Shown: positions 1 to 33,578 of the stretch, one piece after another
Numbering within the stretch: position 1 is the stretch's first letter
Layout: the number at the start of each line of letters is the position of its first letter
IMG/VR virus record: IMGVR_UViG_3300043409_001183
Coordinates: 1-33,578 of that record
DNA: 33,578 nucleotides
Source: a virus
Taxonomy: Duplodnaviria; Caudoviricetes
Reading direction: 5' to 3' (one strand)
Position numbers and translations under genes: made by a program
Notes under the pieces: generated by a model
Databases searched by the model: none
Told to the model about the DNA's origin: nothing
Seen by the model: only the letters and a program-made list of their open reading frames with translations

Positions 1-12
1 TATCTTTACAGC

Positions 13-107
13 CTTGAAAGCACATTTTTTTTTGTTAGTTTAAAAAAGTTTTTAATTTTTGATTGAAAGGAGGGAGGGCCCGCGTTGATTCGACGGACCC
101 TTTTTTC
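13..107 (+). ncRNA. Putative U-rich antisense small RNA (5' end approximate)
   Basis: Lies between a TATCTTTA -7-like box (1-8) and a GC hairpin plus T-tract. No ORF on +. Complementary to start regions at 9973-9996, 11660-11677 and 12555-12586. Confidence 0.5.
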
Positions 108-110
108 TTT
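76..110 (+). terminator. Intrinsic terminator
   Basis: GGGCCCG-loop-CGGACCC (one mismatch) followed by a T-run. Confidence 0.75.
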
Positions 111-140
111 TAAAAAACTTGCGTATTAAATAAAAAGGCT

Positions 141-148
141 TATATTTG
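141..148 (+). promoter_or_regulatory. Bacteroidota sigma-A -7 element upstream of the head operon
   Basis: TATATTTG matches TAnnTTTG; TTG at ~119 is placed for a -33 box. Confidence 0.7.
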
Positions 149-221
149 CCTTTAATTATTCTATCTTTTCAACTGTATGAAGCTATGCAGGACAACATCT
201 TACAACTCGAAGACCTAATTT

Positions 222-257
222 AAAAGCCTTGACTGCTTACGCGGTCGGGGCTTTTTT
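222..257 (+). terminator. Intrinsic terminator/attenuator ahead of the head genes
   Basis: AAAAGCCTTGACTGC-TTAC-GCGGTCGGGGCTTTT hairpin with G.U pairs, then a T-run. Confidence 0.75.
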
Positions 258-275
258 GTTTTAAATTATATCTAT

Positions 276-512
276 ATGCTGGACTTTTTACAAGCTTTAA
301 AAGCACACACAAAGGGGCAAATAGGCGAGGAGGAACAAAGGCGCGCGGCGATTTGCCAAACGTGCCCCGAGAAAGAGCAGCGCATCTACGCCGAGTTTTT
401 AGAATCAAAGATAGTTGAGATCAACGGCTTAGTTTGCACGAGGTGCAGATGCCCACTAGCAACAAAAATACACGCGAAAGAGGAAAAAAATATTTGCCTA
501 AAATGGAGATAG
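276..512 (+). CDS. Small Cys-rich putative zinc-binding protein
   Basis: CxxC...CxxCxC...C pattern in 78 aa; overlaps the start of the next gene. Confidence 0.7.
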   Translation: MLDFLQALKAHTKGQIGEEEQRRAAICQTCPEKEQRIYAEFLESKIVEINGLVCTRCRCPLATKIHAKEEKNICLKWR

Positions 513-9232: not shown

Positions 9233-9500
9233 CGTAAACAAGAAAACCTGAAAATAAACAAGGCTTGTTTATCGCTAGCCCCAACGGGCACAAGGGCGGA
9301 GAAACCTAGTAAACTAATAAACTATTTAATTAATAATATAATAAGAGTAATAAATATATAGTATATAGATTACAATATAATAGCGAAAACGCGTAAAACA
9401 CGTTATATACTTTAAGAAAAGGGGGTTTATTTTGTTTCTTGTTTATTTTAAAGCCTATAAGCCTTAAAATCAAAGATTTATAAAATATTTGCTTGTTTAC
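9233..9500. repeat. Origin-like element copy 1 (convergent AAACAA/TTGTTT iterons around an AT-rich core)
   Basis: First 38 nt match 23033.. at 37/38; collinear similarity continues through the element. Confidence 0.75.
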
Positions 9501-9575: not shown

Positions 9576-9992
9576 ATGAGTAGAATTGATATAGCACGCC
9601 TAAGAAAACTGAGAGGCATTAAGGCTGCGGAATTAGCGAAAGCTTTATTCCCCGACCACAAACACCCGTACCATGCTTTGAATTTTGTCGAGAGAGGCAA
9701 AGCTTTTTTAAACTCCGAACAGATAGGCGTATTGGCTAAAATTATGGAGCTGCCTATCGGTATGGTTTTCGAAGACACTGACTGGCTTATGAGCTCTTCG
9801 AAAATAGGGCCCTCGATTATCGAGTTTAGGGTTTACGACTACGTCGCCCTTTACGACAGCAAGCGCCACACGACCAAGCTCTCAAACGCTAACGGCGTAA
9901 TGTACGAAGAGGTCGTCCACGATCACGGCATGGGTATCAGCGAATATGAGAAATTTTTAACCGATTTAATAATTAAACACAAACAAAAATGA
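9576..9992 (+). CDS. XRE-family HTH transcriptional regulator
   Basis: IARLRKLRGIKAAELAKAL...VERG...LAKIMELPI pattern; start moved to ATG 9576, downstream of the promoter. Confidence 0.75.
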   Translation: MSRIDIARLRKLRGIKAAELAKALFPDHKHPYHALNFVERGKAFLNSEQIGVLAKIMELPIGMVFEDTDWLMSSSKIGPSIIEFRVYDYVALYDSKRHTTKLSNANGVMYEEVVHDHGMGISEYEKFLTDLIIKHKQK

Positions 9993-10441
9993 GCTTAACA
10001 GAATTAAAAGTAGTTATCACGGATCAAAACGCGGCAATCGTTGCGGAATTTATCACGAAGTTACACGGTGCGTCAGCTATTGCAGCTAAGCCCGTAGAGT
10101 TTATCGAGGTAAACGACGCCGAGGAGGTAAAAGCCGAAGCCGTAGAGCCTAAAAAAGAGCCAGCAAAGCGTCCGTCAAGAGCTAAGAAGCCCGAGCCAGT
10201 AGCGGAGGAGGTCGAAGAGCAAGACGAGTCAGAAGCCGAAGAGGACAACGAACTGGAAGACGAGGGCAACGAGGCCGAAGCCGTAAGGGTTGACGACATT
10301 AGAGCGCTACAAGCTCAAAAAGTAACGGCGCACCGTGAGGCGATTATCGCGAAGTTTAAAACACTAGACGCGAAAGGCATCAGCTCGCTGGACGAGAAGC
10401 ACTACGCCGAGTACTACAACTTTTTAGCAGGTTTAAAGTAG
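9989..10441 (+). CDS. Acidic hypothetical protein preceding DUF2800
   Basis: ATGA-coupled; low-complexity Glu-rich linker and a small C-terminal helical domain. Confidence 0.8.
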   Translation: MSLTELKVVITDQNAAIVAEFITKLHGASAIAAKPVEFIEVNDAEEVKAEAVEPKKEPAKRPSRAKKPEPVAEEVEEQDESEAEEDNELEDEGNEAEAVRVDDIRALQAQKVTAHREAIIAKFKTLDAKGISSLDEKHYAEYYNFLAGLK

Positions 10442-10445
10442 TCGC

Positions 10446-11651
10446 ATGGCAGCAGTTAACCACACCGAAAGAGCGCACGCGCTGCTCAGCGCCTCGGGTT
10501 CCGAACGCTGGCTAAATTGCACCGCGTCGCCTAGACTAGAGGAGCAGTTCGCCGAAGAGCCAACAAGCAGCTACGCCGAGGAGGGCACACTAGCGCACGA
10601 GTTCGCCGAGCTAATGCTGAGACTGGATCTAAAATTTATATCCATGGCGAGCTATAAGCCGCAAGTCGAAGCCTTACGCAAACACCCGCTTTACTATCCG
10701 TCTATGGAAGACGAGGTTATGATCTACGTAAACTACTGCAAGGCTCAGTTCGCAGAGGCTAAACGCCTAGACAAGCACGCACGCATCTTAATTGAGGAGA
10801 AGTTAGACCTTACCGAGTGGATAGAGGAGGGTTTTGGGACAAGCGACTGCATAATAGTCTGCAATCTGGGCATAGAGGTCATAGACTTGAAGTTTGGCAA
10901 AGGTAAGCAGGTCTTCGCAAGTAGAAACAGCCAGTTAATGACTTACGGGCTGGGTGCCGAACGAATAGCCCGCAGGACTACCACTTTTGCAAAAGTGTCC
11001 TTAACGATCGTACAGCCTAGGCTCGATCACATTGACAGCTGGGGCTTATCAGTTAAGGAATTATACGACTGGGGGGCGCAGGTTTTAAAACCGAAAGCCG
11101 AGGAGGCGTTCGACGGACTAGGCGAGCAGGTCGCGGGCGATCACTGCCAATATTGCCGAGCAAAAGTAAAATGTAGGGCTCTTCACGAAATGGCTATGCA
11201 GACGGTAAAAGAGGACTTTAAAGATCCGCACCTAGTAAGCGACGAGGAGCTTTTAAAAGCCTACAACTCGGCGGGTTTTATCGCTAAGTACTTAGAGGCA
11301 GTTAAGGCGCACGTCTTAAAAGAGGCGCTCGACGGTAAGCAGTGGCAAGGTCTTAAGCTGGTAGAGGGCCGAAGCGTTCGCCAATGGTCCGACGAGGCAA
11401 AAGCCCGCGAGATCCTAGAAGAAAATCTCTACGGACCCGAGGAGTTTTTAAACCAAAAAATTAAAGGTCTGGGCGACTTGGAGAAGTTACTCAAAAAATC
11501 TAATTTTGAACGCCTGCTAGGACACCTAATAGTAAAACCCGCAGGAGCGCCTACTCTAGTCGACGAGAATGACAAACGCCCTTTGTACGGCGTAGCACAA
11601 TTACAAAAAGACTTCGCAGACATAAACGAGGGTGGCGAAGACCTCGACTAA
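10446..11651 (+). CDS. DUF2800 family PD-(D/E)xK (Cas4-like) exonuclease
   Basis: HALLSAS...WLNC, EGTLAH, FGTSD, IDLKFG, QLMTY and C..C motifs. Confidence 0.88.
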   Translation: MAAVNHTERAHALLSASGSERWLNCTASPRLEEQFAEEPTSSYAEEGTLAHEFAELMLRLDLKFISMASYKPQVEALRKHPLYYPSMEDEVMIYVNYCKAQFAEAKRLDKHARILIEEKLDLTEWIEEGFGTSDCIIVCNLGIEVIDLKFGKGKQVFASRNSQLMTYGLGAERIARRTTTFAKVSLTIVQPRLDHIDSWGLSVKELYDWGAQVLKPKAEEAFDGLGEQVAGDHCQYCRAKVKCRALHEMAMQTVKEDFKDPHLVSDEELLKAYNSAGFIAKYLEAVKAHVLKEALDGKQWQGLKLVEGRSVRQWSDEAKAREILEENLYGPEEFLNQKIKGLGDLEKLLKKSNFERLLGHLIVKPAGAPTLVDENDKRPLYGVAQLQKDFADINEGGEDLD

Positions 11652-11678
11652 ATTAAAAATCAATTAAAAATTAAGAAA

Positions 11679-12221
11679 ATGGCAGCTAAGAAAGAGTACA
11701 GAGTTACAACGGGTAAAATTTTAGTAAATTTCCCCGAGCTTTTCGAAACAACCTTAGGGTTAGGAACTACACCTCATTGGTCAGTACAAGTAATTGTAAA
11801 CAAAAAGGACAAGGCGACAGTATCGCTTATCGAGGCTAAAATCAAAGAGCTGGAAGATGACATAATTAAGTCTAAGTACGCAGGTAAAAAGCCTAAAAAA
11901 TGGGTAAGCCCATTACGTGACGGCGACGAGGAGAAAGAGAGCGAAGAGTACCAAAACGCCTATTTTTTAAACGCAAAAGCTTACAAGTATAAGCCGAAAG
12001 TAGTTAATAAAGATTTCAGTGATATTTTAGATCCCGAAGAGATCTACAGTGGTTGTTTTGGGAGAGCGGTATTAACTTTCTACCACTATGACAATAGTGG
12101 AAGCGTTGGGATTGCTTGCGGAATTTCAACTTTAATGAAGCTTTCAGACGGCGAGCCTTTAAGCGGCGGACGTGATGTAAGGGCTGATTTTGAAGACATG
12201 GACGACGAGGATCTAGACTAA
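11679..12221 (+). CDS. DUF2815 family single-stranded DNA-binding protein
   Basis: PLRDGD, YFLNA, IYSGC, DGEPL motifs and an acidic C-terminal tail. Confidence 0.88.
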   Translation: MAAKKEYRVTTGKILVNFPELFETTLGLGTTPHWSVQVIVNKKDKATVSLIEAKIKELEDDIIKSKYAGKKPKKWVSPLRDGDEEKESEEYQNAYFLNAKAYKYKPKVVNKDFSDILDPEEIYSGCFGRAVLTFYHYDNSGSVGIACGISTLMKLSDGEPLSGGRDVRADFEDMDDEDLD

Positions 12222-12232
12222 TTAAAAACGGC

Positions 12233-12289
12233 GGGTGCGCTAGGTGCATAATTACTAAAGTAAGCGGGTTCGACTCCCGCACACCCTCA
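12233..12289 (+). ncRNA. Minimal tRNA-like element (acceptor and T arm, no true anticodon arm)
   Basis: GCGGG-TTCGACT-CCCGC perfect T arm; GGGTG/CACCC acceptor-like stem; only ~25 nt between them. Confidence 0.55.
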
Positions 12290-12477
12290 AAGCCGAAAGG
12301 CTCAGCTATAAAAACTCGGGACAACAGACGGGAATTTTTAGCGACACGGACTACAGCGTGAGACTCGTAGCGGTGCATAAGCAAAGGCGTACAGGTAGGG
12401 ACCTCTTGCAATTATAAATATTTTGGTTTAAAATAGTTAAACTTAGACCCGTTAAGGCTCTCGCGTAAAGAGCCGCC

Positions 12478-12549
12478 GATACTTTAGCTCAGTTGGTAGA
12501 GCGGGGCAGATAGGGTCCCTCGTCGCAGGTTCGAGTCCTGCAAGTATCT
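12478..12549 (+). tRNA. tRNA-like gene with an aberrant anticodon loop (AGATAGG); identity undetermined
   Basis: Acceptor GATACTT/AAGTATC, D arm GCTC-AGTTGGTA-GAGC, T arm GCAGG-TTCGAGT-CCTGC. No N26, no U33, no encoded CCA. Confidence 0.75.
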
Positions 12550-12572
12550 CAAAACCTTTCAACTCAAAAATT

Positions 12573-14531
12573 ATGACTTTTAAACTGCACATTGACGTCG
12601 AGACTTATTCGAGCGTCGACATAGCGACCTGCGGCTCTTACGCTTACTTCGAGAGCCCCGACTTCGAGATCTTAATTTTGGCTTATAGCCTCGAGGGCGG
12701 AGACGCCAAGGTCCTAGACCTAGCGCAAGGCGATAAAATGGACAAGGGCTTTGTCGACTTACTGCATAACCCTAAAGTCGAGCTACACGCGCATAATGCA
12801 AACTTCGAAAGAAACGCCTTTAAAGCGATAGGCTACGACATACCAGTCGAGCGCTGGCACTGCTCAGCGGTTAAAGCTGGGTACTGCGGTCTACCTATGA
12901 GCCTAGACGGCGCAAGTAAGGCACTAGGCATCGAGCAGCTAAAAGCCGCAGAGGGTAAGGCTTTAATTAGATACTTCTCTTGCCCCGTTAAGCCTACCAA
13001 GACCAACGGCGGGCGAACCCGCAACCTACCACACCACAACCCCGAGAAATGGGAAGCATATAAAAACTACTGCGCGCAGGACGTACGTACAGAAATGGGC
13101 ATACTCGACGCGCTGGCAGGTTTCGAACTACCCGAGACGGAGCGCTTAAACTACTTTTTAGATCAAAAAATTAACGACCGAGGCGTTAACATCGACGTAA
13201 CGCTGGCGCGTAACGCTATCTTAATAGACGACCGCTTTAAGCTAGAAGTCACGGACGAACTGAAAAGAATTACAGGACTTTCCAACCCCAACAGCGTCGC
13301 TCAGCTCTCGCAATGGCTCACAACTGAGACGCGAAAAGAAGTAAAAACACTCGCAAAAGATAATGTTACGGCTTTAATTGACGAGCTTAAAAGCGGCGCT
13401 GCGGTTGAGGTCCTAAAGTTAAGACAGCTAGGCTCGAAGACTTCAACTAAAAAGTTTGAAGCGATGGTAAACTATGCACTAGACGATCACACGGCGCACG
13501 GCCTTTTATACTTTTACGGCGGTAGCAGGACGGGCCGCTGGGCTGGCCGAGCCGTCCAGCTTCAAAACTTACCCCGTAACAAAATGGAGCTTATCGACTG
13601 CGCCCGTCAACTGGTACGCGCTGGCGATTATGAAATGCTTAAGATCATGTTCGACAATATCCCGAGTGTACTATCTCAGTTGATCCGTACGGCCTTAATT
13701 GCTAAAGACGGTAATACCTTAGCCGTTGCCGATTATAGCGCGATAGAGGGCAGGATAACGGCTTGGCTAGCTGGCGAGCGCTGGCGCCTTGACGTATTTG
13801 CAGGAGACGGCAAGATCTACGAGGCGTCGGCGGCTATGATGTTTAACGTACCGATAGAGTCAATCGGTAAAGGCTCAGAGCTTCGAGACAAGGGCAAAAT
13901 TGCCGAGCTGGCTCTCGGCTTCGGCGGATCCGTCGGAGCGCTTAAAACTATGGGCGGCGAGTCTATGGGGCTAAGTGAGTCAGAGATGAAGTCGATCGTT
14001 GAGCGCTGGCGCAAAGCTTCGCCCGCTATTGTAAAAATGTGGTATGAGTTCGAGGCGTGCGCAATTGACGCACTTAAAACTAGACGTCCGATAAAGTCAA
14101 AACTAAAAGGCATCACGTTTAGATATCAGCATAAATGCCTAACTATCGAACTACCAAATAGCCGTAAACTTATCTATCGCGAACCCGTACTAACTTCAAA
14201 TAAGTGGGGCGGGGAGTCTATAAAATACAAAGGTAAAAATCAAATTACTGGACAATGGGGCTGGGTGGATACTTACGGCGGGAAGCTCTCGGAAAACATT
14301 ATACAGGCAATCGCTAGAGACTTACTAGCGGACGGTATGCGCAGGCTAGACGCCGCAGGCTTCGACATCGTTATGCACGTGCACGACGAAGTGGTCGCCG
14401 ACATACCCGACCTATCGACCGACTACGTAATCGGCGAAATGTGCAGGATTTTAGGCGAGGAGGTCGACTGGGCTCGAGGGCTCGGAACGCCCGCCGAGGG
14501 GTTCGTAACGCCGTACTATAAAAAAGACTAA
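12573..14531 (+). CDS. DNA polymerase, family A (3'-5' exonuclease plus polymerase)
   Basis: HIDVETYS (ExoI), HNANFE, TGRWAG..QLQNLPR, ADYSAIE (motif A), [12 protein letters not shown] (motif B), HVHDE (motif C). Confidence 0.95.
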
Positions 14532-14537
14532 AAAAAA

Positions 14538-14580
14538 ATATACAACGGTGTTGTATATATTAAATATAGTTATATATTTG
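14538..14580 (+). promoter_or_regulatory. Promoter (TATATTTG 14573-14580) with two tandem operators
   Basis: Perfect palindrome ATATACAAC-GGT-GTTGTATAT (14538-14558) and ATATTAAAT-ATA-GTTATATAT (14557-14577). Confidence 0.75.
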
Positions 14581-14604
14581 CTAAGACCTAAAACAGAAAA
14601 AAAA

Positions 14605-15327
14605 ATGATAAAGATGGAAATTAAATCGGTAGGGGGCGTAGTGCTTTTTTCGCACGAGGCAGAAAATAATACAATAAAAGAAACTCTGGAGCGTGCGGAT
14701 TTGAGCGGTGCGAATTTGAGAGGTGCGGGTTTGATGCGTGCGGATTTGAGAGGTGCGGATTTGAGCGGTGCGAATTTGAGCGGTGCGGATTTGAGCGGTG
14801 CGAATTTGAGAGGTGCGGATTTGATACGTGCGGATTTGAGAGGTGCGGATTTGAGCGGTGCGAATTTGAGAGGTGCGGATTTGAGCGGTGCGAATTTGAG
14901 CGGTGCGGATTTGAGCGGTGCGGATTTGATGCGTGCGGATTTGAGCGGTGCGGATTTGATGCGTGCGGATTTGAGCGGTACGGATTTGAGCGGTGCGAAT
15001 TTGATGCGTGCGAATTTGATCGGTGCGGATTTGAGAGGTGCGGATTTGAGCGGTGCGAATTTGAGAGGTGCGGATTTGAGCGGTGCGGATTTGAGCGGTG
15101 CGAATTTGAGCGGTGCGATACTCCCGCAATTTTGTAAATGGTCCCACGGAATCAAAGACGGTAAAATTAGAATAGGCTGTAAAGTTAAAACGATTGAAGA
15201 CTGGGACGCTTTTTTTAATTCAGAAGAAGAGTACGACACACCTAGAAGCTCCTCAGATTTTAAACAAATTAGGGCTATTTTTGAATCCTACAAAGCGTAT
15301 TTAAATGTTTTAAATTCAAAAGGATAA
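14605..15327 (+). CDS. Pentapeptide repeat protein
   Basis: 28 tandem A(D/N)L(S/R/M/I)(G/R) units; start moved to ATG 14605, downstream of the promoter. Confidence 0.93.
14695..15114 (+). repeat. 15-bp coding tandem repeat, 28 copies (consensus GCGGATTTGAGCGGT)
   Basis: Directly visible; 420 bp / 15. Confidence 0.95.
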
Positions 15328-17739
15328 GTGACACACGACGGGAAAATCAACATCGCTACGGGCTTAAACGTTCGCTCGACGGTATGGAAAAATAAGGCGG
15401 TTAAATGGTCGGACTTTGTCAAGACTATAAGCACGCCCTCAGTAATGGCGGTAAGCTACAAAGATTTTATTAACGCCAACAAAGAAGAGCAGACCTCGCT
15501 AAAAGGCGCGGCGGGTGGGTACGTCGGGGGCTACTTGCGTAACGGCAAGCGAAGCCCTAAAAACGTAATGCACCGCCAGCTCTTGACGCTAGACATCGAC
15601 TTCGCGCATTTTGAATTTTGGGAGGACTTTACTCTGCAGTACACTAACGCGGCGATCCTGCACGGAACGGCGAAGCACTCAAAGGCTATGCCAAGATACC
15701 GCCTTTTAATGCCGTTAGACCGAGAGTGTACGCCCGACGAGTACGTCGCAGTCGGCCGCTACGTGGCGGGCGAGCTAGGCGTCGAGCTTTTCGATAATAC
15801 TACTTTCGAGACTAACCGCCTAATGTTCTACCCAGTAGTCCCGAAAGACTCGGAGTATTATTGCGAGGTGCAGGACGGCGACTGGCTAAATGTCGACGAG
15901 ATCCTAGCCTCTTACATAGACTGGACGGATACAAGCCTCTGGCCCACCTCGGGGCGAATGCTGCGAGAGCTAGGCGACCGAGCCAAGAAGCAGGCAGACC
16001 CGAGAGAGAAGAGCGGGATCGTTGGGGCTTTTTGCCGTACCTACGGAATTGCTGAGGTTATAGAAAAGTACTTAACCGACGAGTACACGCCGACCGACAA
16101 AGAGGACCGCTACACCTATACGCAAGGCTCAACGGCTGGTGGGCTTATTGTCTACGAGGACACGTTCGCGTTTAGCCACCACGGGACAGACCCCTGCAGC
16201 GGCAAAACCTCAAACGCCTTTGACCTTGTAAGGCTGCATAAATTCGGCCACCTAGACGCTGAGGGGCAGGCCGCAGGCGTTAAGGCTAAGAGCTTCGCGG
16301 CTATGGAAGAGCTCGCGCTCAAAGATAAAGAAGTTAAGAAGCTAATCGCCGCCGAGAGCCTCGAGGCTATAAAGTACGACTTCGCCGAGCCGCTGGACGA
16401 CTACGACCTAGAGGACGAAGCCGTCGAGGGTTCAGCTACGGCCGACGCTACCGAGTGGCTCGCCGAGTTAGACATGGACAACCGCGGGAACTACCTCTCG
16501 AGCGCTCAAAACCTAAATTTAATATTCACGAACGACGCGCGCCTTAAAGATTGTTTTAAGCAAAACCAGTTCGATAATAAGCGCTACGCTTTTAAAACTT
16601 TGCCTTGGCGCCGAGTTACTAAACCCGAGCCGCTTCGCAATGTAGATTATAGCGGAATACGTAACTATATCGAAACGATCTACGGCATTACGGGCGTTCA
16701 GAAAATAGACGACGCTCTCGCTTTGGAGTTCGAAAGGCGATCCTTCCATCCGATTAAGGACTATCTTAACGGCTTGGCGTGGGACGGTCAAAAACGCATT
16801 GATTATTTATTAATTGACTACTTCGGGGCGCCCGACAACGCATACACCCGCGAGGCTATTCGAAAAACTTTAGTCGCTGCGGTTGCAAGAGTATTTAATT
16901 CGGGAGTGAAATTCGACTTGGTTTTAACGCTAATAGGCCCGCAGGGTACAAACAAAAGTACTTTTATCAATAAGCTAGGCGGCGAGTGGTACTCTGATAG
17001 TTTTATGACCGTAAGCGGGAACCAAGCCTTTGAGCAATTACAAGGCGCTTGGATAATGGAAATTGCAGAAATGGCAGGGTTTAGAAAGTCAGACGTCGAG
17101 GGAGTAAAGCACTACCTTACTAAGCAGATAGACACCTACCGCCCCGCCTATGGTAAAGTCGTCGAGTCGTACCCGCGCCAAAATATCTTTATAGCTACGA
17201 GCAACAAGCACCAGCTCTTCACGGACCCAAGCGGAAACCGTCGCTTTATGCCGATAGACGTGAAGCCCGAAGAGGTACTAAAAAGCGTATGGCACGACCT
17301 CGACGCTGAGGTCCCGCAAATATGGGCTGAGGCTAAATATCTTTTTGATAAAGGTGAGAGTTTGTTTTTAAGCGCAGAGGCCGCAGTAATTGCGGACAAA
17401 GAACAAAGAGAGCACTGTGACGTTGACGACCGTACGGGCATAGTAGAGGAGTACCTTAACGCTTTTCTGCCAGACAGCTGGGCTAAGCTAGACTTAGACC
17501 AAAGGCGAATGTACCTCAACGACCCCGAAGCCTCAGAGGCTAACAGTAACAAACGTGACAGGGTTTGCATCGCTGAGATATGGTGTGAGTGCCTCGGGAA
17601 GAACAAAGAGGACATGAGCCGCTACTTAACGGGCAGCATCAACGACATAATGAAGAGCCTCACAGATTGGGAGTATAAAGCCTCAACGGCTAACTTCGGG
17701 ATCTATGGCAAACAGAAATTTTATCAACGTAAAAAATAA
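15328..17739 (+). CDS. Primase plus VapE/VirE-family P-loop helicase
   Basis: N-terminal GGYVGG, LTLDID, H...PRYRL primase-like motifs; C-terminal Walker A GPQGTNKST, Walker B IMEIAE and D.SGNRRF. Confidence 0.9.
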   Translation: MTHDGKINIATGLNVRSTVWKNKAVKWSDFVKTISTPSVMAVSYKDFINANKEEQTSLKGAAGGYVGGYLRNGKRSPKNVMHRQLLTLDIDFAHFEFWEDFTLQYTNAAILHGTAKHSKAMPRYRLLMPLDRECTPDEYVAVGRYVAGELGVELFDNTTFETNRLMFYPVVPKDSEYYCEVQDGDWLNVDEILASYIDWTDTSLWPTSGRMLRELGDRAKKQADPREKSGIVGAFCRTYGIAEVIEKYLTDEYTPTDKEDRYTYTQGSTAGGLIVYEDTFAFSHHGTDPCSGKTSNAFDLVRLHKFGHLDAEGQAAGVKAKSFAAMEELALKDKEVKKLIAAESLEAIKYDFAEPLDDYDLEDEAVEGSATADATEWLAELDMDNRGNYLSSAQNLNLIFTNDARLKDCFKQNQFDNKRYAFKTLPWRRVTKPEPLRNVDYSGIRNYIETIYGITGVQKIDDALALEFERRSFHPIKDYLNGLAWDGQKRIDYLLIDYFGAPDNAYTREAIRKTLVAAVARVFNSGVKFDLVLTLIGPQGTNKSTFINKLGGEWYSDSFMTVSGNQAFEQLQGAWIMEIAEMAGFRKSDVEGVKHYLTKQIDTYRPAYGKVVESYPRQNIFIATSNKHQLFTDPSGNRRFMPIDVKPEEVLKSVWHDLDAEVPQIWAEAKYLFDKGESLFLSAEAAVIADKEQREHCDVDDRTGIVEEYLNAFLPDSWAKLDLDQRRMYLNDPEASEANSNKRDRVCIAEIWCECLGKNKEDMSRYLTGSINDIMKSLTDWEYKASTANFGIYGKQKFYQRKK

Positions 17740-17744
17740 AGATT

Positions 17745-17987
17745 ATGGAATTTTCAAAGAAAGATCAAGAGCTACACGATGAGATAGTTATTAAGCTGCA
17801 AGCCTTATCGAAAGATCTAAAAAGGGCGGGATTTGGCTACTGGCTGACCGTAGGCAGAAAAGGGCAAGCGGCCAACTATTGCGGAGGCCCCAAAGACGAT
17901 GTTGTAGGTGCTGTAGTTAATCTAGCGGAGCGAAACCCCGAACTAGCCCACGCCTTACAGTGCGCCCTAGACGAAAGCCTTATATAA
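17745..17987 (+). CDS. Hypothetical protein
   Basis: 80 aa, fills the gap; TAATG-coupled to the next gene. Confidence 0.7.
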   Translation: MEFSKKDQELHDEIVIKLQALSKDLKRAGFGYWLTVGRKGQAANYCGGPKDDVVGAVVNLAERNPELAHALQCALDESLI

Positions 17988-18268
17988 TGGCTAGCGAGAA
18001 GACTATCGAGCGCCACTTCGCTACGCAGGTTAAGCTCTTAGGCGGGCAGTCGTTCAAACTGCCTGCCGTCTACGTGGCAGGGCTGCCCGACCGCATGGCC
18101 TTACTACCTGGAGGCGTTGTGTTTTTCGCCGAGCTTAAAACGACGGGCAAAAAGCCCACACCGATACAAAAACTAATACATAAAAAACTGAGAGCGCTCG
18201 GCTTCGACGTCTATGTTATTGACTCGATCGAGTTATTAGAACAAACAATTAATAAATATAAAATATGA
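17987..18268 (+). CDS. VRR-NUC domain nuclease
   Basis: SEKTIE, GLPDR, FAELK and PIQ motifs; start at ATG 17987. Confidence 0.9.
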   Translation: MASEKTIERHFATQVKLLGGQSFKLPAVYVAGLPDRMALLPGGVVFFAELKTTGKKPTPIQKLIHKKLRALGFDVYVIDSIELLEQTINKYKI

Positions 18269-19593
18269 ATGTACTCTCACTATTTGACGGCATGAGCTGC
18301 GGGCGCGTAGCCTTAGAGCGTTGCGGCTTTAATATCAATAACTACTATGCTGCTGAGATTGACAAGTACGCTATTCAAGTAGCGCTCAACAACTACCCCG
18401 ATACTATACCGATAGGCGACGTCACTAAGGTTAAAGCCAAAGACCTAGGGCCTATCGACTTATTAATAGGCGGGTCGCCCTGCCAAGGTTTTAGCTTTGC
18501 GGGCAAGCAATTGAATTTTGGGGACCCTAGAAGTATGTTATTCTTTGAGTTCGTGCGCTTGCTTAAAGACTGCAAACCTAAATACTTTTTTCTTGAAAAT
18601 GTAGTAATGAAAAAAGAATACCAAGACGTAATCAGTAAATACTTAGGCGTTGAGCCTATAATGCTTAATAGCTCGCTCGTATCGGCGCAAAGCCGTAAGC
18701 GTTTATACTGGACTAATATACCGGGCTATACGCCGCCTGAGGATAAAGGTATCCTCTTGAAAAACATCGTGCACGAGAACTGCGAGACTTTTAAAGACAA
18801 GTCGCAAACACTATTAGCAACTATGTTTAAAGAAAACGCTAAGTCAATGGTTAAGAGAAACAAAGCAGGGCTTATAGTTAATTCGTTTAATATAAACCCA
18901 AGCGGTAAAGGCATGAACGGCTTAGTGCAGAGCACCCAAAAAGAAAAGCTTAATTGCCTTACAACTAATAAGGGGGAGGGGCAGAAGATAGGTACTGAAC
19001 TAAACAGCTATATAGTACCCTTCGATAAAACCCTGCAAATACTCGACAAAGAGGTTGCAAGGGGTAAAGTTGGATATTTTAGAAAAGACAGCCAAGCAAA
19101 TAGGGTTTATTATATTCACGATAAAGCCGTGACGTTATGCGGAGACGCAGGAGGCGGAGCGGCTAAGATGGGTCAGTATTTGTTTGGCGAGGTTATGAGT
19201 GTCAGGGATATATCCCGAGGGGATAAAATAGATGGGGGTGCACTTTTTAAAGATGACGACAAAAGTCACACGCTTACAACTCGCCCGGATCATATGGGTT
19301 TACTTTTCGGTTGCATAACGCCCGACCGAATAGACAAACGCCAAAACGGTCAACGTTTTAACGACGGAACAAAGTTCTACACCCTGACGGCGCAAGACCG
19401 CCACGGTATATTAATCGAGGGCTATATCCGTAAGCTCACACCTATTGAGTGCGAACGCTTGCAAACTTTGCCTGACAACTACACGGCGGGAGTCAGCAAC
19501 TCACAACGATATAAAATGTTAGGCAACGGCTGGACGGTCGACGCCGTTTGCGAGTTCTTTAAACACTTACCAAAAGACATGGATCTATTTTAA
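18265..19593 (+). CDS. DNA (cytosine-5)-methyltransferase with an expanded variable region
   Basis: LSLFDG (I), GGSPCQGFS (IV), LENV (VI), Q.RKRLYW (VIII), ECERLQ (IX), LGNGW (X). Confidence 0.93.
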   Translation: MNVLSLFDGMSCGRVALERCGFNINNYYAAEIDKYAIQVALNNYPDTIPIGDVTKVKAKDLGPIDLLIGGSPCQGFSFAGKQLNFGDPRSMLFFEFVRLLKDCKPKYFFLENVVMKKEYQDVISKYLGVEPIMLNSSLVSAQSRKRLYWTNIPGYTPPEDKGILLKNIVHENCETFKDKSQTLLATMFKENAKSMVKRNKAGLIVNSFNINPSGKGMNGLVQSTQKEKLNCLTTNKGEGQKIGTELNSYIVPFDKTLQILDKEVARGKVGYFRKDSQANRVYYIHDKAVTLCGDAGGGAAKMGQYLFGEVMSVRDISRGDKIDGGALFKDDDKSHTLTTRPDHMGLLFGCITPDRIDKRQNGQRFNDGTKFYTLTAQDRHGILIEGYIRKLTPIECERLQTLPDNYTAGVSNSQRYKMLGNGWTVDAVCEFFKHLPKDMDLF

Positions 19594-19595
19594 TT

Positions 19596-20975
19596 ATGGC
19601 AAACTTTAGACCGCATAACTACCAGCTTAAAACCGTTGAGTTTATTATCGACAACACGCACGCAGGCATCTTTGCTGAGATGGGGACGGGCAAGACCGTC
19701 TCTACTCTTACGGCTATCAATCAATTAATGTTCGAAGACTTCGAAATCAATAGCGTTTTAATCGTAGCGCCTAAGCGCGTCGCTGAGGTTGTCTGGTCCG
19801 ACGAGGTCGCCAAGTGGGCGCACCTTAAAAACTTAACTATCTCAAAGATAACGGGCACGGAGAAGCAACGCCGCGCAGCCTTAGCCGTTAAGGCCTCTAT
19901 CCACATAGTGAGCCGTGACTTAATCGCGTGGCTAGTCGGCGAGTTTGGGGGCTCAAAGCTCCCGTTCGATATGCTGGTAATCGACGAGAGTAGCTCTTTT
20001 AAAAATCATGCGTCAGTAAGGTTCAAAGCTCTTAAAGCAGTGCAGGCTTCATTCTCTCGCGTCGTCCTGCTGACGGGCACGCCAGCGCCTAATGGCCTTA
20101 TTGATTTGTGGCCGCAGATATGGCTGCTAGACCGAGGCGAGCGCCTAGGCAAAACGATAACGTTCTACCGTACAAACTACTTTTCGAAAAAGTATAGCGG
20201 CTTCGGCTATGAGCCCAACGCCGAGGCGGACGAACGGATCCACTCGAAAATAAAAGATATATGTATGAGCCTTAAGTCCGAAGACTATCTCGAGCTACCC
20301 GAGCGTATCGACACTTTTATTAATGTAGTCCTACCACCAGCGATCAAAGAAAAGTACGACGACTTTGAACGCGATAGGGTTCTCGAGCTGCTAGCCTCTG
20401 AGGGCGAAGAGATCGCGGCGATGAACGCGGCGGCGCTCAGTAATAAGCTGCTACAATTCGCAGGCGGTGCGGTTTACGACGAGGAGCGCAACGTCCACGA
20501 GGTGCACGCCTGCAAGCTGGACGCCTGCGAGGAGTTCATCGAGGAGGCGAACGGTAAGCCCGTATTCATTGCGTACAGCTACAAGCACGAGCTCGAGCGC
20601 TTGCTCGTTAAGCTTAAGAAGTACAAACCCGTAAAGCTCGAGACTCAGCAGCATATAAAGGACTGGAACGCTGGTAAGATCCAAGTAATGCTCGCACACC
20701 CTGCCAGCGCCTCACACGGGCTTAACTTGCAGGAGGGGCACACGCTGGCGTTATGGTTTAGCCTTAACTGGTCGCTCGAGCTATACCAGCAATTTAATAA
20801 AAGACTTCACAGACAAGGCCGAAAATACCCCGTAGTTATAGGCCACTTAATCGCGCAGGGCACAGAGGACGAGACGGTTAAAAAAGCGCTCGACCGCAAA
20901 GGCGACACGCAAAATATTTTAATGGAGGCAGTCAAAGCGAAAGTCGATAAATACAAAAAAAATTTTAAACCCTAA
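19596..20975 (+). CDS. SNF2-family helicase
   Basis: MGTGKT, VIDESS, LTGTP, HGLNLQ and Q...RLHRQG motifs. Confidence 0.93.
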   Translation: MANFRPHNYQLKTVEFIIDNTHAGIFAEMGTGKTVSTLTAINQLMFEDFEINSVLIVAPKRVAEVVWSDEVAKWAHLKNLTISKITGTEKQRRAALAVKASIHIVSRDLIAWLVGEFGGSKLPFDMLVIDESSSFKNHASVRFKALKAVQASFSRVVLLTGTPAPNGLIDLWPQIWLLDRGERLGKTITFYRTNYFSKKYSGFGYEPNAEADERIHSKIKDICMSLKSEDYLELPERIDTFINVVLPPAIKEKYDDFERDRVLELLASEGEEIAAMNAAALSNKLLQFAGGAVYDEERNVHEVHACKLDACEEFIEEANGKPVFIAYSYKHELERLLVKLKKYKPVKLETQQHIKDWNAGKIQVMLAHPASASHGLNLQEGHTLALWFSLNWSLELYQQFNKRLHRQGRKYPVVIGHLIAQGTEDETVKKALDRKGDTQNILMEAVKAKVDKYKKNFKP

Positions 20976-23006: not shown

Positions 23007-23032
23007 ATCTTTAAGGCAGATCGTAGACAAAA

Positions 23033-23349
23033 CGTAAACAAGAAAACCCGAAAATAAACAAGGCTTGTTTCTTGCCGAGCCCAACGAACGCAAGGGCTGC
23101 AAGGGTTATAAACTAATAAACAATATAATTAATAAGATAATAAGAATAATAAATATATAGTAATAGTATTACATAAGTATATAATATATACACATAAAAC
23201 GCATACACCGCACAAAACGCGTTATAACCTTTAGAAAACGCTGTTTTTATTGTTTCTTTGTTTCTACTAGCCCTAAAAGCCTAAAAATCAATTAATTACA
23301 ATTTATTTCAATTTTAATCTTGTTTCTGTATTGTTTCTGTATTGTTTAT
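23033..23349. repeat. Origin-like element copy 2
   Basis: Homologous to 9233-9500; ends in a triple TTGTTT(C/A) repeat. Confidence 0.75.
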
Positions 23350-23742: not shown

Positions 23743-23754
23743 TATCTTTGCGGT

Positions 23755-24246
23755 ATGAAGTACACACCAGCCGAAAAACTAGCAGGATTTAAAAAGGTTC
23801 TCAAAGCCGTTGAGGACGGAGAGCCGCTGCGTAATGTTTTGATGAGAGGCGACGCGATAGGTAAGCGGGTTTTTTACGACATGATCCGAGAGAGCGAGGA
23901 GCTTCGCGCACAATACGCGCACGCGAAAGAGATCGCCGCCGAAATGCTTTTCGACCGCATGCTCGAGATAGCAGAGAATCCCCAAGAGGGGCAAACGATA
24001 CAAGACGGGCCCAACGGCGTGACTATTACCTCGGCGGATATGCTCGGGCACCGCAGGCTCTTAATTGATACGATTAAGTGGCGGCTATCCAAAGAAGCGC
24101 CGAAAAAATACGGAGACAAGCTCGACCTCACTAGCGGCGACAAGCCCCTGCTGGCGCCAGTTATCGGCATGATTATAAAAAACGAACTACCGGAGGCCGA
24201 AGAGACTCAAAACTTGCAAGACGATGAGTTCGGCGATCTCGATTGA
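23755..24246 (+). CDS. terS: Terminase small subunit
   Basis: YAHAKE...LEIAE...HRRLLIDTIKWRLSKEAPKKYGDK is typical of Sf6-like TerS; overlaps terL. Confidence 0.88.
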   Translation: MKYTPAEKLAGFKKVLKAVEDGEPLRNVLMRGDAIGKRVFYDMIRESEELRAQYAHAKEIAAEMLFDRMLEIAENPQEGQTIQDGPNGVTITSADMLGHRRLLIDTIKWRLSKEAPKKYGDKLDLTSGDKPLLAPVIGMIIKNELPEAEETQNLQDDEFGDLD

Positions 24247-30708: not shown

Positions 30709-33336
30709 ATGGAATCGAACATCATAAACATTGCAACTCTAACGATAGACCGAACCGAAGCGGCCGACTCTATCGTTAAGACTAAGCAAGAAATTTTCGA
30801 GCTGCAAAAGGCAAACGCCGAACTTCGAAAAGACATTTTAAAGAACGGCGACGCGACGGGCGAACAGACCAAGCAGTTCGTCGAAAACGAGGCCGAGCTT
30901 AAAAAGCTTACGGCGCAATATCGAACGCAGCAAAACGCAATTAACGACGTGACGCTGGCCGAGATCAAAAATAGTGCGGCGTTAACGCAAAACGCGAAGA
31001 CTATCGACCAAGCCAACGCGCAAAACAAAGAGCTGTTAAAAACGCGTAACCAGATAGACGCCTCAACAACTGAGGGCGCCGAGGCTATCACATTGCTAAA
31101 CGCCAAACTAGATCAAAACAAAGAATTTATAGTTGCTAACGGCAACGCTAGCGAAAAAGCGGCAAATATTACAGGCAACTATAGGCAAAAAATATTCGAG
31201 CTTAGTAGCTCGTTAGACAATTCAATACCAGGCTTCCAGCAAGCGCGTACAGTAGTAGCGGGCTTCGCGTCTATAGTAGGCGAGTCGGCCGACGCCGTGA
31301 CAAATTACACTAATAGCGCGATACAATCGACACGCGCGACACTAGGTTTTAAAACGGCAAGCCAGACAGCAGCTCAGACGACCGCAGTACAAACGACGGC
31401 GACCGAGGCTCAAGCCGTGGCCCAAACGCAAGTAACCGTCGCGACTGCTGGAACAACCGTAGGGATGAAGCTTTTAAAAGCGGCGATAATCTCGACGGGT
31501 ATAGGGGCACTGGTCATTCTTTTAGTCTCAGTCTTCACGGCGTTAAGCCAAAGCGAGACGGCATCGAACAAGTTTAGCAGAGCACTGGCAGGGTTCAAAG
31601 GGATTTTAAACGCCGTCTTTGCAGTATTAAAACCGCTAGGCGAGTTCTTAATCGACAAGATAGTCGCAGCGTTCGAGCTTGCGGGCGAAGTGGCCGAAAA
31701 GACTCTCGGGCTAATATCAAAAGGGCTTAATGCTATCGGCTTTACCAACGCCGCGAAGTCGGTCGACAATTTTACTAAAAGCGTTAAGGGTTCGATCCAA
31801 GCCACGCAACAGCTGGCAGACGCGGAGGCTGAGTTCAACGCCGCACAGCGACAATCGCAAAAAATACAGCTCGACTTCCAGCGTCAAGCTGAGAAGCTAA
31901 GGCAGTTAAGAGACGACGAGAGTAAGAGCATACCCGAGCGAATAAAAGCCAATAACGCGCTAGGCGCTACGCTTAAACAGCAAGCCTCCGACGAGCTACG
32001 TATCGCAAACCAAGGCGTCGCAATCGCAAACCTGCGCATAAAATTAACAGGTCGGAGCAAGGACAACCTCGACGAGCTGGCGCAAGCCGAGACGAAAGTC
32101 TCAGACATTCGGGAGCGTATAAGCGGGCAAGAGTCGGAGCAGCTAACAAACCTAAACTCACTAAGAAAAGAGGCTGCAGACAAAGCAAAAGAGCAGGCAG
32201 CCGCCGAGCGTGAGCGCAAGCTTAAAGCGCTTAACGACACCGTTATAGTTTTTGAGGGCGAACGCCGAAGCGCCGACGATCAACTGGCTTTTTATCAAAA
32301 TTACTACGCCCAACTCGACAAGCTGCAGAACGGATCCGAGAGAATAAAAAACGCGGCGGACTTTTCAGCGAAAGTTCTCGAGATCACAAATAAAACGATA
32401 GCCGACGAGCTGGCGGCCCAGACAAAGGCTATTGAGGATAAAAAGGCGTTAAGCCTGCAAGAGCGCGACGAGCTAATCGCAAACGCCGACTTTTTGAAAA
32501 AAGTAGAGACTGAGCGCGTAAAGTCGCAGCTACTTACTGAGGTCGACAAAGCAAAGGCGCTCGAGGAAATACAAAAGGGTTACCTCGCCAACGTTGCCGC
32601 CATTAACCAGACTTTCGAAGAGTCCGAAAAAATGCGCAAGCAGGAGCAAGAGGCGCTCGACGCGATAGCGTTCGAGACTAGGCTCTTAACGATCCAAGAG
32701 CAAGGCATCACCGAGAGCGAGATCCGCCGCCAAATTTTACTCGCTGAGTACGAAGAGAAACAGAGACTTGTCGCGCTGGACCTAGAAAACGAAAAGATCA
32801 CAGCGAAAGAGGCAACCGCTATCCGACTACTCGAGGAGAGGCGCTACGCCCAAGCGACAAAGGCTATCGACAAAGAAGTTGCCAAGACTAAGCGCGACGC
32901 CCAGTTCGGTATCGCTCAGCAGGCAATCGCCGCGGCTCAGTTAATTTTTGGCGAGAGCAAGGCCTTATCGGTTGCCTCAGCGCTTATAAACACGTACCAA
33001 GGTATAACGGCAGAGCTATCGACTAAGGCCGTGACGCCTTACGAAATAGGGCTAAAAGTGGCAAACGTTGCATTTGTTGCGGCTTCGGGATTTGCGGCCG
33101 TTAGAAACATACTAAAAACAGACAAGGGCTCGAGCGCTGGAGGTAGTAGCGGGGCTGGAGGAGGCACGACCTCAACGCCTGCGGCCGTATTCGAAAACCC
33201 AGCAAGGACCGCGACCGTTGCGACGGTAGACGCCGCGCCAAACCAAGAAAACCCGCAGGCCGTTCAGACGGTTCTTGTACTTGAAACGCTGGACGAGGCA
33301 AAAAACCAGCAACAAATTAAAATAAAATCGACTTAA
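30709..33336 (+). CDS. Tail tape measure protein
   Basis: 875 aa Ala/Glu/Lys coiled coil with hydrophobic STGIGALVILL segment. Confidence 0.88.
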   Translation: MESNIINIATLTIDRTEAADSIVKTKQEIFELQKANAELRKDILKNGDATGEQTKQFVENEAELKKLTAQYRTQQNAINDVTLAEIKNSAALTQNAKTIDQANAQNKELLKTRNQIDASTTEGAEAITLLNAKLDQNKEFIVANGNASEKAANITGNYRQKIFELSSSLDNSIPGFQQARTVVAGFASIVGESADAVTNYTNSAIQSTRATLGFKTASQTAAQTTAVQTTATEAQAVAQTQVTVATAGTTVGMKLLKAAIISTGIGALVILLVSVFTALSQSETASNKFSRALAGFKGILNAVFAVLKPLGEFLIDKIVAAFELAGEVAEKTLGLISKGLNAIGFTNAAKSVDNFTKSVKGSIQATQQLADAEAEFNAAQRQSQKIQLDFQRQAEKLRQLRDDESKSIPERIKANNALGATLKQQASDELRIANQGVAIANLRIKLTGRSKDNLDELAQAETKVSDIRERISGQESEQLTNLNSLRKEAADKAKEQAAAERERKLKALNDTVIVFEGERRSADDQLAFYQNYYAQLDKLQNGSERIKNAADFSAKVLEITNKTIADELAAQTKAIEDKKALSLQERDELIANADFLKKVETERVKSQLLTEVDKAKALEEIQKGYLANVAAINQTFEESEKMRKQEQEALDAIAFETRLLTIQEQGITESEIRRQILLAEYEEKQRLVALDLENEKITAKEATAIRLLEERRYAQATKAIDKEVAKTKRDAQFGIAQQAIAAAQLIFGESKALSVASALINTYQGITAELSTKAVTPYEIGLKVANVAFVAASGFAAVRNILKTDKGSSAGGSSGAGGGTTSTPAAVFENPARTATVATVDAAPNQENPQAVQTVLVLETLDEAKNQQQIKIKST

Positions 33337-33350
33337 TTAAAATTAATTAC

Positions 33351-33578
33351 TATCTTTACAGCCTTGAAAGCACATTTTTTTTTGTTAGTTTAAAAAAGTT
33401 TTTAATTTTTGATTGAAAGGAGGGAGGGCCCGCGTTGATTCGACGGACCCTTTTTTTCTTTTAAAAAACTTGCGTATTAAATAAAAAGGCTTATATTTGC
33501 CTTTAATTATTCTATCTTTTCAACTGTATGAAGCTATGCAGGACAACATCTTACAACTCGAAGACCTAATTTAAAAGC
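33351..33578 (+). repeat. Terminal direct repeat, right copy
   Basis: Matches 1..227 with one extra T. Confidence 0.95.

Follow-up and report, generated by a model that had tools for sequence, protein, structure and literature searches.

Genome setting and layout of the locus

The window analysed here is an entire viral record of 33,578 bases, whose last 229 bases (33350-33578) are a copy of the first 228 plus one extra T, a repeat read as an assembly overlap. Since a contig from sequencing run X1 passes through position 1 and has the same extra T, the genome is taken to be a circle of 33,349 bases, and a genome end at position 1 is ruled out. All long genes lie on the + strand, with capsid and lysis genes followed by a replication block and then by terminases, tail genes and a tape-measure-like gene. 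The replication block (9576 to 20975) opens with an HTH-like ORF, ORF 9989, a DUF2800 nuclease, SSB, a family A DNA polymerase (Pol) and a pentapeptide protein, and continues with a primase-helicase, a VRR-type nuclease, a methylase and SNF2. The phage promoters are of the Bacteroidota type, with TTG about 20 bases before TAnnTTTG. The nearest annotated Pol is that of Croceibacter phage P2559Y (53%), and the nine terminase relatives found in species genomes, at 43-54%, all belong to Bacteroidota. Polymerase and terminase relatives together with promoter type point to a host that is probably a member of the Bacteroidota, and within them probably of the Flavobacteriales. The phage-bearing sources were freshwater metagenomes. 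Among annotated phages there was no real DNA match to positions 1-500 (four short matches) and no match to the capsid protein; among species genomes no close prophage was found, the single weak match being to a 78-aa protein.

The sequence of interest begins 13 bases 3' of the tape-measure-like gene stop. The features of this locus are as follows.

30709-33336, + strand: tape-measure-like gene of 875 codons, named by length, position and make-up (PHROGs 'virion structural protein'; nothing in Pfam)
1-8, + strand: -7-type promoter box TATCTTTA, with no TTG at -33; second copy at 33350-33357
13-106, + strand: predicted small RNA of about 94 nt, its ends placed from the box and the terminator; second copy at 33362-33456
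18-43, + strand: 5' arm with an anti-AUG (CAU), able to span the start of ORF 9989 by pairing
33-70, + strand: main arm, with complementarity to the Pol start from -18 to +18; 49-66 is also complementary to the SSB leader
65-73, + strand: purine stretch GAAAGGAGG, Shine-Dalgarno-like, the first six bases of which pair with the Pol leader
76-106, + strand: intrinsic terminator identified by folding, a G+C hairpin (76-100) and a U run (101-106)
119-262, + strand: second non-coding unit (unit 2), with TTG at 119-121, TATATTTG at 141-148, a hairpin, a linker and a strong terminator at 222-260
276-512, + strand: gene of the 78-aa protein, always first in the capsid operon

The initial annotation had described an ORF-less unit of about 95 nt behind the tape-measure gene, with a -7-like box and a terminator of its own. 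This description holds, and the unit (unit 1) is kept in eight phages; a second copy at 33350-33457 exists because 33350-33578 duplicates 1-228. The box corresponds to the Bacteroidota promoter element that lies at -12 to -5 (PMC9723704), the U-rich core can be read directly at 13-64, and the hairpin is the first terminator after the terminase, tail and tape-measure genes. Because of that hairpin the fold of the full unit beats 200 of 200 shuffles (z -2.9), while the core at 13-75 is open, with a centroid that has no pairs (z +1.5). There is no ATG on the + strand of 13-106, and a small protein on the - strand (10 codons, A-rich leader) was rejected, its frame being lost in relatives. None of the four Rfam matches in the window at E<=1 overlaps 1-110, and no match at the gathering score was found over the homologous unit in locus L024. 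Of the 24 sequencing runs listed, X18 is the sole RNA run; its 17 short contigs leave 1-534 uncovered, and their share of this phage is too small for a judgement. Runs of small word shares were left aside. The 78-aa protein downstream has six cysteines that are invariant across seven aligned homologues, and belongs to no Pfam or PHROGs family.

Five proteins served as queries to gather relatives: those of capsid, terminase and tape measure, the polymerase and the 78-aa protein. The layout of the window, in which the tape-measure stop is followed by the box, U-rich core, purine run, hairpin, unit 2 and 78-aa gene, recurs in G001, G002, G005, G013, G014, G015 and G018. Across the eight close phages the -7 box lies 13-24 nt 3' of the tape-measure stop; it reads TAnnTTTG in three and TAnnTTTA in five, so that five of eight are off-consensus, and seven of eight are without TTG. 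Terminator stems differ in sequence in all relatives, and every one folds. Farther out, a box, U-rich stretch and terminator of different sequence stand there in G009, G010, G017, G019, G023, G025 and L062; L005, G008, G016, G020 and L067 have no insert, the tape-measure stop being followed by the promoter of the 78-aa gene; and G011, G021, L061 and L068 have a different insert. Run against 60 sources, a sequence model built from the eight units recovered a single copy per genome, with no further match below E 0.002; its five weak matches include the reverse strand of the Pol start of G013. A DNA pattern scan of viral contigs returned 79 matches, of which the three with both box and U run were all previously known, and RNAalifold on an automatic alignment gave no shared pairs. 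The 5' anti-AUG arm is similar in G013, G015 and G018 and absent from G002, G005 and G014. In all eight close phages the promoter and intrinsic terminator expected of a trans-encoded sRNA are present without a conserved ORF. The unit is thus real, conserved, single-copy and non-coding.

A strain contig from run X5, covering window positions 1-419, retains unit 1, while 152-246, in the middle of unit 2, is swapped for 73 other letters. Its unit 1 differs at 35, 44, 45, 97 and 99 and by three gap letters, with 46-96 unchanged, and 26 substitutions fall in 247-419. The changes A97G and C99T both preserve the terminator stem.

Predicted pairing with replication-gene starts in the window phage and its clade

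The partners proposed for the RNA lie about 10 to 12.5 kb away on the same strand.

12555-12591, + strand: main target, the start of the family A DNA polymerase gene (ATG 12573), 5 nt 3' of a tRNA-like element
11660-11677, + strand: second target, the SSB leader (ATG 11679), from the pairing scan
9973-9996, + strand: third, weaker target, the start of ORF 9989 (150 aa, no assigned function, gene 2 of the replication block)
12478-12550 and 12230-12290, + strand: tRNA-like elements before Pol, one with an odd anticodon arm and one a T-arm remnant

The pairings described from the letters alone were recovered: the 29 Watson-Crick pairs between 37-70 and 12555-12586 fall into runs of 8+10+6+5, the 18-bp duplex at 11660-11677 is unbroken with two G.U pairs, and the 5' arm pairs with 9973-9996 around one A.A mismatch and one internal loop. 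Long G.U-rich hybrids dominated the plain RNAduplex scans of relatives; an IntaRNA-like script was therefore written that uses ViennaRNA Turner loop energies, allows loops up to 4, omits dangles and includes the opening energies of both RNAs. Start regions came from a simple ATG caller, which missed the exonuclease start and the GTG-started primase of the window phage (G000), and the scans cover phage starts. By RNAduplex over both strands, the Pol start is the best non-self site (-29.4, the next being -24.9). With accessibility, the three best sites of the whole + strand are the starts of Pol (-19.1), SSB (-12.6) and ORF 9989 (-9.8), and the best non-self site on the - strand reaches -10.3. 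The value for Pol was reached genome-wide by none of 40 dinucleotide-shuffled cores (mean -11.7, sd 1.9), and by none of 300 shuffles either at the Pol start or at any of 41 starts. For SSB, shuffles matched the real energy at its own start in 0/300 cases and at any start in 10/300; for ORF 9989 the corresponding counts are 1/300 and 64/300. Pol, SSB and ORF 9989 thus take ranks 1, 2 and 3, the outcome that the test in the initial annotation had called for. The pentapeptide gene, also put forward as a target, is rejected: a match exists at its start, yet it ranks 8/41 (-4.5) and is reached by 40 of 120 shuffles, which is chance level. In G000 the predicted RNA would likely pair with the SSB and ORF 9989 starts as well as with that of Pol, and is predicted to stop translation at all three.

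Conservation was assessed in the six records that have both the unit and a Pol start (G000, G002, G005, G013, G014, G015), leaving out G001 and G018, which have the unit and no Pol start, and G028, G029 and G031, whose stretches include Pol and stop short of the unit. The six genomes and two fragments form one clade, with Pol 66-88% and RNA cores 62-88% identical, so the six are not independent draws. In the order given, the Pol start ranks 1/41, 1/40, 1/48, 1/41, 1/45 and 4/43 among called starts, the last value being that of G015. These ranks are steady for seeds 5, 7 and 8, and likewise without accessibility (1, 1, 3, 1, 1 and 2). Out of 300 shuffles, 0, 0, 1, 3, 0 and 9 matched the real energy at the Pol start, and 0, 52, 145, 7, 2 and 115 did so at any start. 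Genome-wide, the Pol site leads in G000, G013 and G014, takes second place in G002 and eighth in G005, and falls below the top ten in G015; the best site was equalled by 0 of 40 shuffles in G000, 1 in G014 and 3 in G013 (nearly separated), and is no better than shuffles in G002 (26), G005 (36) and G015 (27). In all six genomes the duplex covers the AUG or the bases directly 5' of it; it reaches at least -9 of Pol in each, and spans -18..+18 in G000.

The other starts behave differently. SSB ranks 2, 7, 16, 4 and 32 in the five genomes in which its start was called (it was uncalled in G014), and ORF 9989 ranks 3, 17, 23, 2, 12 and 1; as a group, replication-block starts are enriched in two of six genomes at p<0.05. 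Set against the Pol ranks, this variation indicates that Pol is the family target whereas the others come and go, and the multi-target sRNA first proposed stands family-wide for Pol, while SSB and ORF 9989 are lineage-dependent side targets and the pentapeptide gene drops out. Imperfect complementarity to a distant mRNA, conserved and above chance, is accordingly found for Pol and in part for SSB and ORF 9989. In three distant phages the look-alike units show no preference for Pol, which ranks 14/50, 2/32 and 27/51. Distant units (L027:12665-12745, L028:12665-12735 and L058) contain UUUCAU and GGAUUU, and three of the top five starts for the G009 unit lie just 3' of the primase gene (-13.8 to -11.3), not at Pol.

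Compensatory changes between the RNA and the Pol leader, which the initial annotation had suggested looking for, were found. Within the clade, an A run follows CTTTCA in the Pol leaders, and the complement of this stretch lies right before the purine run in the RNAs. An extra C in the leader, unique to G000, is matched by a G in the G000 RNA; the N-terminus MTFKL is likewise unique to the G000 Pol (MAIEL or MAVKL in relatives), and the G000 RNA alone has an arm that fits MTFKL codons 2-5. In G014 an A-to-T change in the leader is answered by U-to-A in the RNA; in G002 a G after the A run gives a perfect 15-base match, the longest of the RNA in that genome; and in G013 a G at -2 of ORF 9989 (A in G000 and G015) faces a C in the RNA where theirs has U. 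For the G000 RNA, the energy is -19.1 at the Pol start of G000 and between -1.9 and -7.5 at those of the five relatives, whose RNAs in turn give -4.0 to -9.2 on the G000 start. The sum of own-pair energies for Pol was matched by 22 of 720 pairings, the preference being weak for SSB (10/120) and ORF 9989 (51/720), and the Pol starts of seven phages outside the clade give 0 to -8.0 with the six RNAs. Clade members other than G000 and G014 share the ancestral motif and cross-react, so the covariation signal comes mainly from these two genomes; G013, G014 and G015 each retain a mismatch or wobble in the motif, and for the RNAs of G005, G013 and G015 the Pol of another phage gives a better score than that of the same genome. 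Unit 2, which is unfit for Pol and therefore a fair control, ranks Pol 31, 19, 9, 23, 28 and 26 and has no own-pair preference (670/720).

Proposed action, timing and competing explanations

Altogether, these results argue that unit 1 probably encodes a trans-acting antisense RNA that would repress Pol translation. The host sigma-A polymerase would make an RNA of about 94 nt from the box at 1-8, or, alternatively, read-through from the terminase-tail genes would yield a transcript that ends in the unit sequence. The single-stranded core would then cover -18..+18 of the Pol start, including the adenines at -3, -6, -12 and -13, and a start covered in this manner would be blocked for initiation. 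Flavobacterium johnsoniae initiates without Shine-Dalgarno pairing (PMC6847099); instead, Flavobacterium ribosomes use the adenines at -3, -6, -12 and -13 (PMC13000457). In addition, FopS-10 pairs beside a start codon and blocks initiation (PMC11697453). Adenine use and the FopS-10 precedent make an initiation block the likeliest effect.

The least certain step is the timing, in which the RNA would accumulate with the morphogenesis genes and lower replication as packaging starts. The unit promoter occupies the place that the capsid-operon promoter has in unit-less relatives. Moreover, in counts that include kin phages sharing labels, TTG at -33 occurs in 3/14 unit promoters, 5/13 terS promoters and 3/10 capsid-operon promoters, and in 11/13 replication-operon and 8/8 unit 2 promoters. 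Two observations, position and promoter type, thus fit the late expression that had been proposed, and we regard it as about evenly balanced. The accompanying suggestion of a carrier state is unsupported, as is lysogeny: the tyrosine integrase PF00589 was found in 0/5 records (control 14/14), and no close prophage was found among the species genomes.

A possible but distinctly less probable reading is that the RNA is made early or constantly, acting as a polymerase ceiling (copy control) or excluding co-infecting relatives as immunity groups do, in the manner of c4 of P1/P7. The unit box is of the host sigma-A type, three of the 14 unit promoters do have TTG, c4 heteroimmunity offers a precedent (PMC12197685), and the specificities look like groups: the RNAs of G002, G005, G013, G014 and G015 bind one another's Pol starts well, while the G000 start escapes all of them and the G000 RNA ignores theirs. 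Against this, the unit closes the terminase-tail operon and its promoter is TTG-poor like those of terS and the capsid operon, unlike that of the replication operon; and with no integrase in the five records there would be no lysogen to keep immune. It is improbable, and already a strained view, that the unit is a mere late-operon terminator whose U-rich spacer fits A-rich leaders by chance. The low complexity of the sequence, the three genomes in which the best genome-wide site does not exceed shuffles, and the lack of a consensus fold besides the hairpin in the automatic alignment would all suit such an account, yet shuffles that keep the composition fall short of the Pol energy, Pol comes first in five of six diverged genomes with matched changes on both sides, and the -7 box is kept in 8/8.

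That pairing instead activates or processes the Pol leader, as lambda PreS does dnaN, appears very improbable. It would make sense of a pairing site that starts 5 nt 3' of a tRNA-like element, and of a T-arm-like motif that ends 25-41 nt 5' of the Pol ATG in 9/15 phages; but the duplex lies on the AUG or immediately before it in every one of the six genomes, the leader is already open (structure cost about 4 kcal/mol or less in G013, and 8 in G000 with partners combined), and phages with an unmatched Pol leader have the tRNA-like element too. The element with the odd anticodon arm scores 49.5 bits as an Rfam tRNA and is called Tyr-ATA by ARAGORN, and the T-arm-like motif varies in sequence across the phages that have it. 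The tRNA-like elements before Pol could be processing sites.

The purine stretch raises a further explanation, namely that the RNA also or mainly binds the 16S rRNA tail via GAAAGGAGG, either as a decoy for bS21-less ribosomes or with the tails titrating the RNA off the Pol leader. With the tail assumed to be as in F. johnsoniae (oligo in PMC13000453), positions 65-73 form nine contiguous pairs with the 16S 3' end, and a scan for the tail found it widespread. The unit site is the strongest of the whole + strand in six of eight close phages, and is weaker in G001 and G002, where nine and five sites are equally strong. In Flavobacteriales, strong sites are nearly confined to rpsU, with 9-13 pairs (PMC9976891), so that the nine pairs here equal the low end of the rpsU range (PMC9976891; PMC13000453); a start codon at working distance, as an rpsU-type extended site would have, is absent, the terminator hairpin following with no conserved start. 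Pol pairing gains nothing from the bases past GAAAGG, yet two G residues are the same in 8/8, and the motif persists in G019 and G025, the former having a unit that does not fit its Pol. However, pairing with the Pol leader accounts for six of the nine bases, the remainder can base-pair with the U run of the terminator (unpaired probability near 0 at 69-75), a single ancestral event explains every copy, normal ribosomes of the host phylum conceal the tail, and the motif is absent in G009, G010 and G017. Since Pol uses six bases and the U run can take the others, ribosome binding is a minority reading, and we consider it unlikely.

Relation to known RNAs and the neighbouring unit 2

Unit 1 would work like FopS/GibS and c4 but fails their defining features. 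With the FopS/GibS RNAs of Bacteroides thetaiotaomicron it shares trans-encoding, several targets, pairing at start codons and, as predicted here, an initiation block, as well as the Bacteroidota sigma-A promoter of FopS and the two seed regions of GibS (PMC11697453). Those RNAs are host-encoded, RbpB-bound and present as 14 paralogues that target glycan-uptake operons (PMC11697453), whereas unit 1 is phage-encoded and single-copy, with the phage's own polymerase as predicted target. Their family sequence or fold gave no Rfam match at 1-110 (E<=1) or over the L024 homologue (gathering score), and no multicopy paralogues were found among its eight members in 60 sources. The c4 RNA, encoded by phages P1/P7, likewise stops a phage gene from being translated by pairing at the ribosome-binding region, with a sequence specificity that separates relatives (PMC12197685). 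That RNA is folded so that loops present its pairing segments, acts on an antirepressor mRNA and has its role in lysogeny (PMC12197685); unit 1 has an open core, a Pol target about 12.5 kb away and no integrase that could be found. For the c4/CI RNAs of P1, P7 and P4, the conserved fold has no Rfam match here and the core at 13-75 is unfolded, and in place of an adjacent antirepressor target in a temperate phage the best target is Pol, with integrase in 0/5 records.

Lambda PreS (LPR1) is likewise a trans-acting phage sRNA that tunes lytic DNA replication; it is Hfq-dependent and raises translation of the host gene dnaN (bioRxiv 10.1101/2024.10.31.621285), in contrast to the repression of the phage's own genes predicted for unit 1. 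Sar of P22, OOP and aQ of lambda, and PAK_P4as15 are also phage antisense RNAs against phage genes, encoded opposite their lysis-lysogeny or lysis targets (PMC12197685), whereas unit 1 pairs imperfectly from a distant locus. The phage sRNAs in the available parts of that review act on lysogeny, lysis, exclusion or host genes, and the words polymerase, Bacteroid- and Flavobacter- never occur in it (PMC12197685). In the mainly open-access literature covered, no phage RNA that targets its own polymerase start in trans was found, and none from a Flavobacterium phage. How small lytic phages with only host-type promoters turn down their replication genes is poorly known. G000 and G014 supply natural orthogonal RNA-target pairs for a direct reporter test in Flavobacterium, and the pairing of unit 1 would offer a design rule for silencing starts that are free of Shine-Dalgarno sequences. 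Furthermore, the Shine-Dalgarno-like stretch opens a way to test whether the concealed anti-Shine-Dalgarno tail of Bacteroidota ribosomes is put to use by phages.

In all eight close phages the promoter of unit 2 fits the consensus. Its hairpin is paired in 43/48 cells, with six double changes and none of 500 shuffles as good, in a register chosen after a first one gave 47.9% paired. The unit 2 terminator lies directly 5' of the 78-aa gene, the first of the capsid operon; this gene has its own box in 0/8 close phages versus 10/10 others. Unit 2 may be an attenuator of the capsid operon, an arrangement for which lambda pR'-tR' is a comparison; it is a separate unit and possibly a partner RNA. 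As a sponge for unit 1 it was rejected, 21 to 100 of 100 shuffles equalling it across eight genomes. After the fact, it was observed that the unit 2 linker of G005 ranks SSB first and ORF 9989 second (0 and 1 of 200 shuffles), and that of G002 ranks them fifth and fourth (9 and 6 of 200), a pairing not seen in G000, G013, G014 and G015. G002 and G005 are two of the three genomes whose unit 1 is without the 5' anti-AUG arm, and in them unit 2 would possibly be a second antisense RNA against the SSB and ORF 9989 starts. A wider reading, which we hold to be rather improbable, is that the switch from replication to assembly is controlled by RNA alone, from a cassette of two RNAs located between the tail and capsid operons, with unit 1 silencing the polymerase, units 1 and 2 splitting SSB and ORF 9989 by lineage, and the Shine-Dalgarno-like stretch of unit 1 allowing the 16S tails of bS21-less ribosomes to compete with the Pol leader. 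If true, phage replication would be tied to the ribosome state of the host, or bS21 autoregulation would be choked.

Several minor observations concern other parts of the genome. The -7 box stands just 4-5 bases 5' of the ATG of terS here (23743-23757) and in G001, and at the same distance from the 78-aa gene ATG in 10/10 phages outside the clade (L005, L026, L056 and L066 among the loci); such genes likely have leaderless mRNAs for morphogenesis. CTAAGAC(C/T) occurs in three leaders (14581, 20972 and 22095), located after a consensus promoter or at the start of a gene, and also in unit 2 of G002 and G005, and is not general among relatives. In the L008 (G003) fragment the Pol gene is inverted relative to the primase gene, which would reflect either an inversion or a misassembly. 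Finally, a 280-base repeat is present in two + strand copies (9233-9490 and 23032-23307) that are 74% identical, each with a similar terminator before it and a consensus promoter after it; the copies are candidates for origins or protein-binding arrays.
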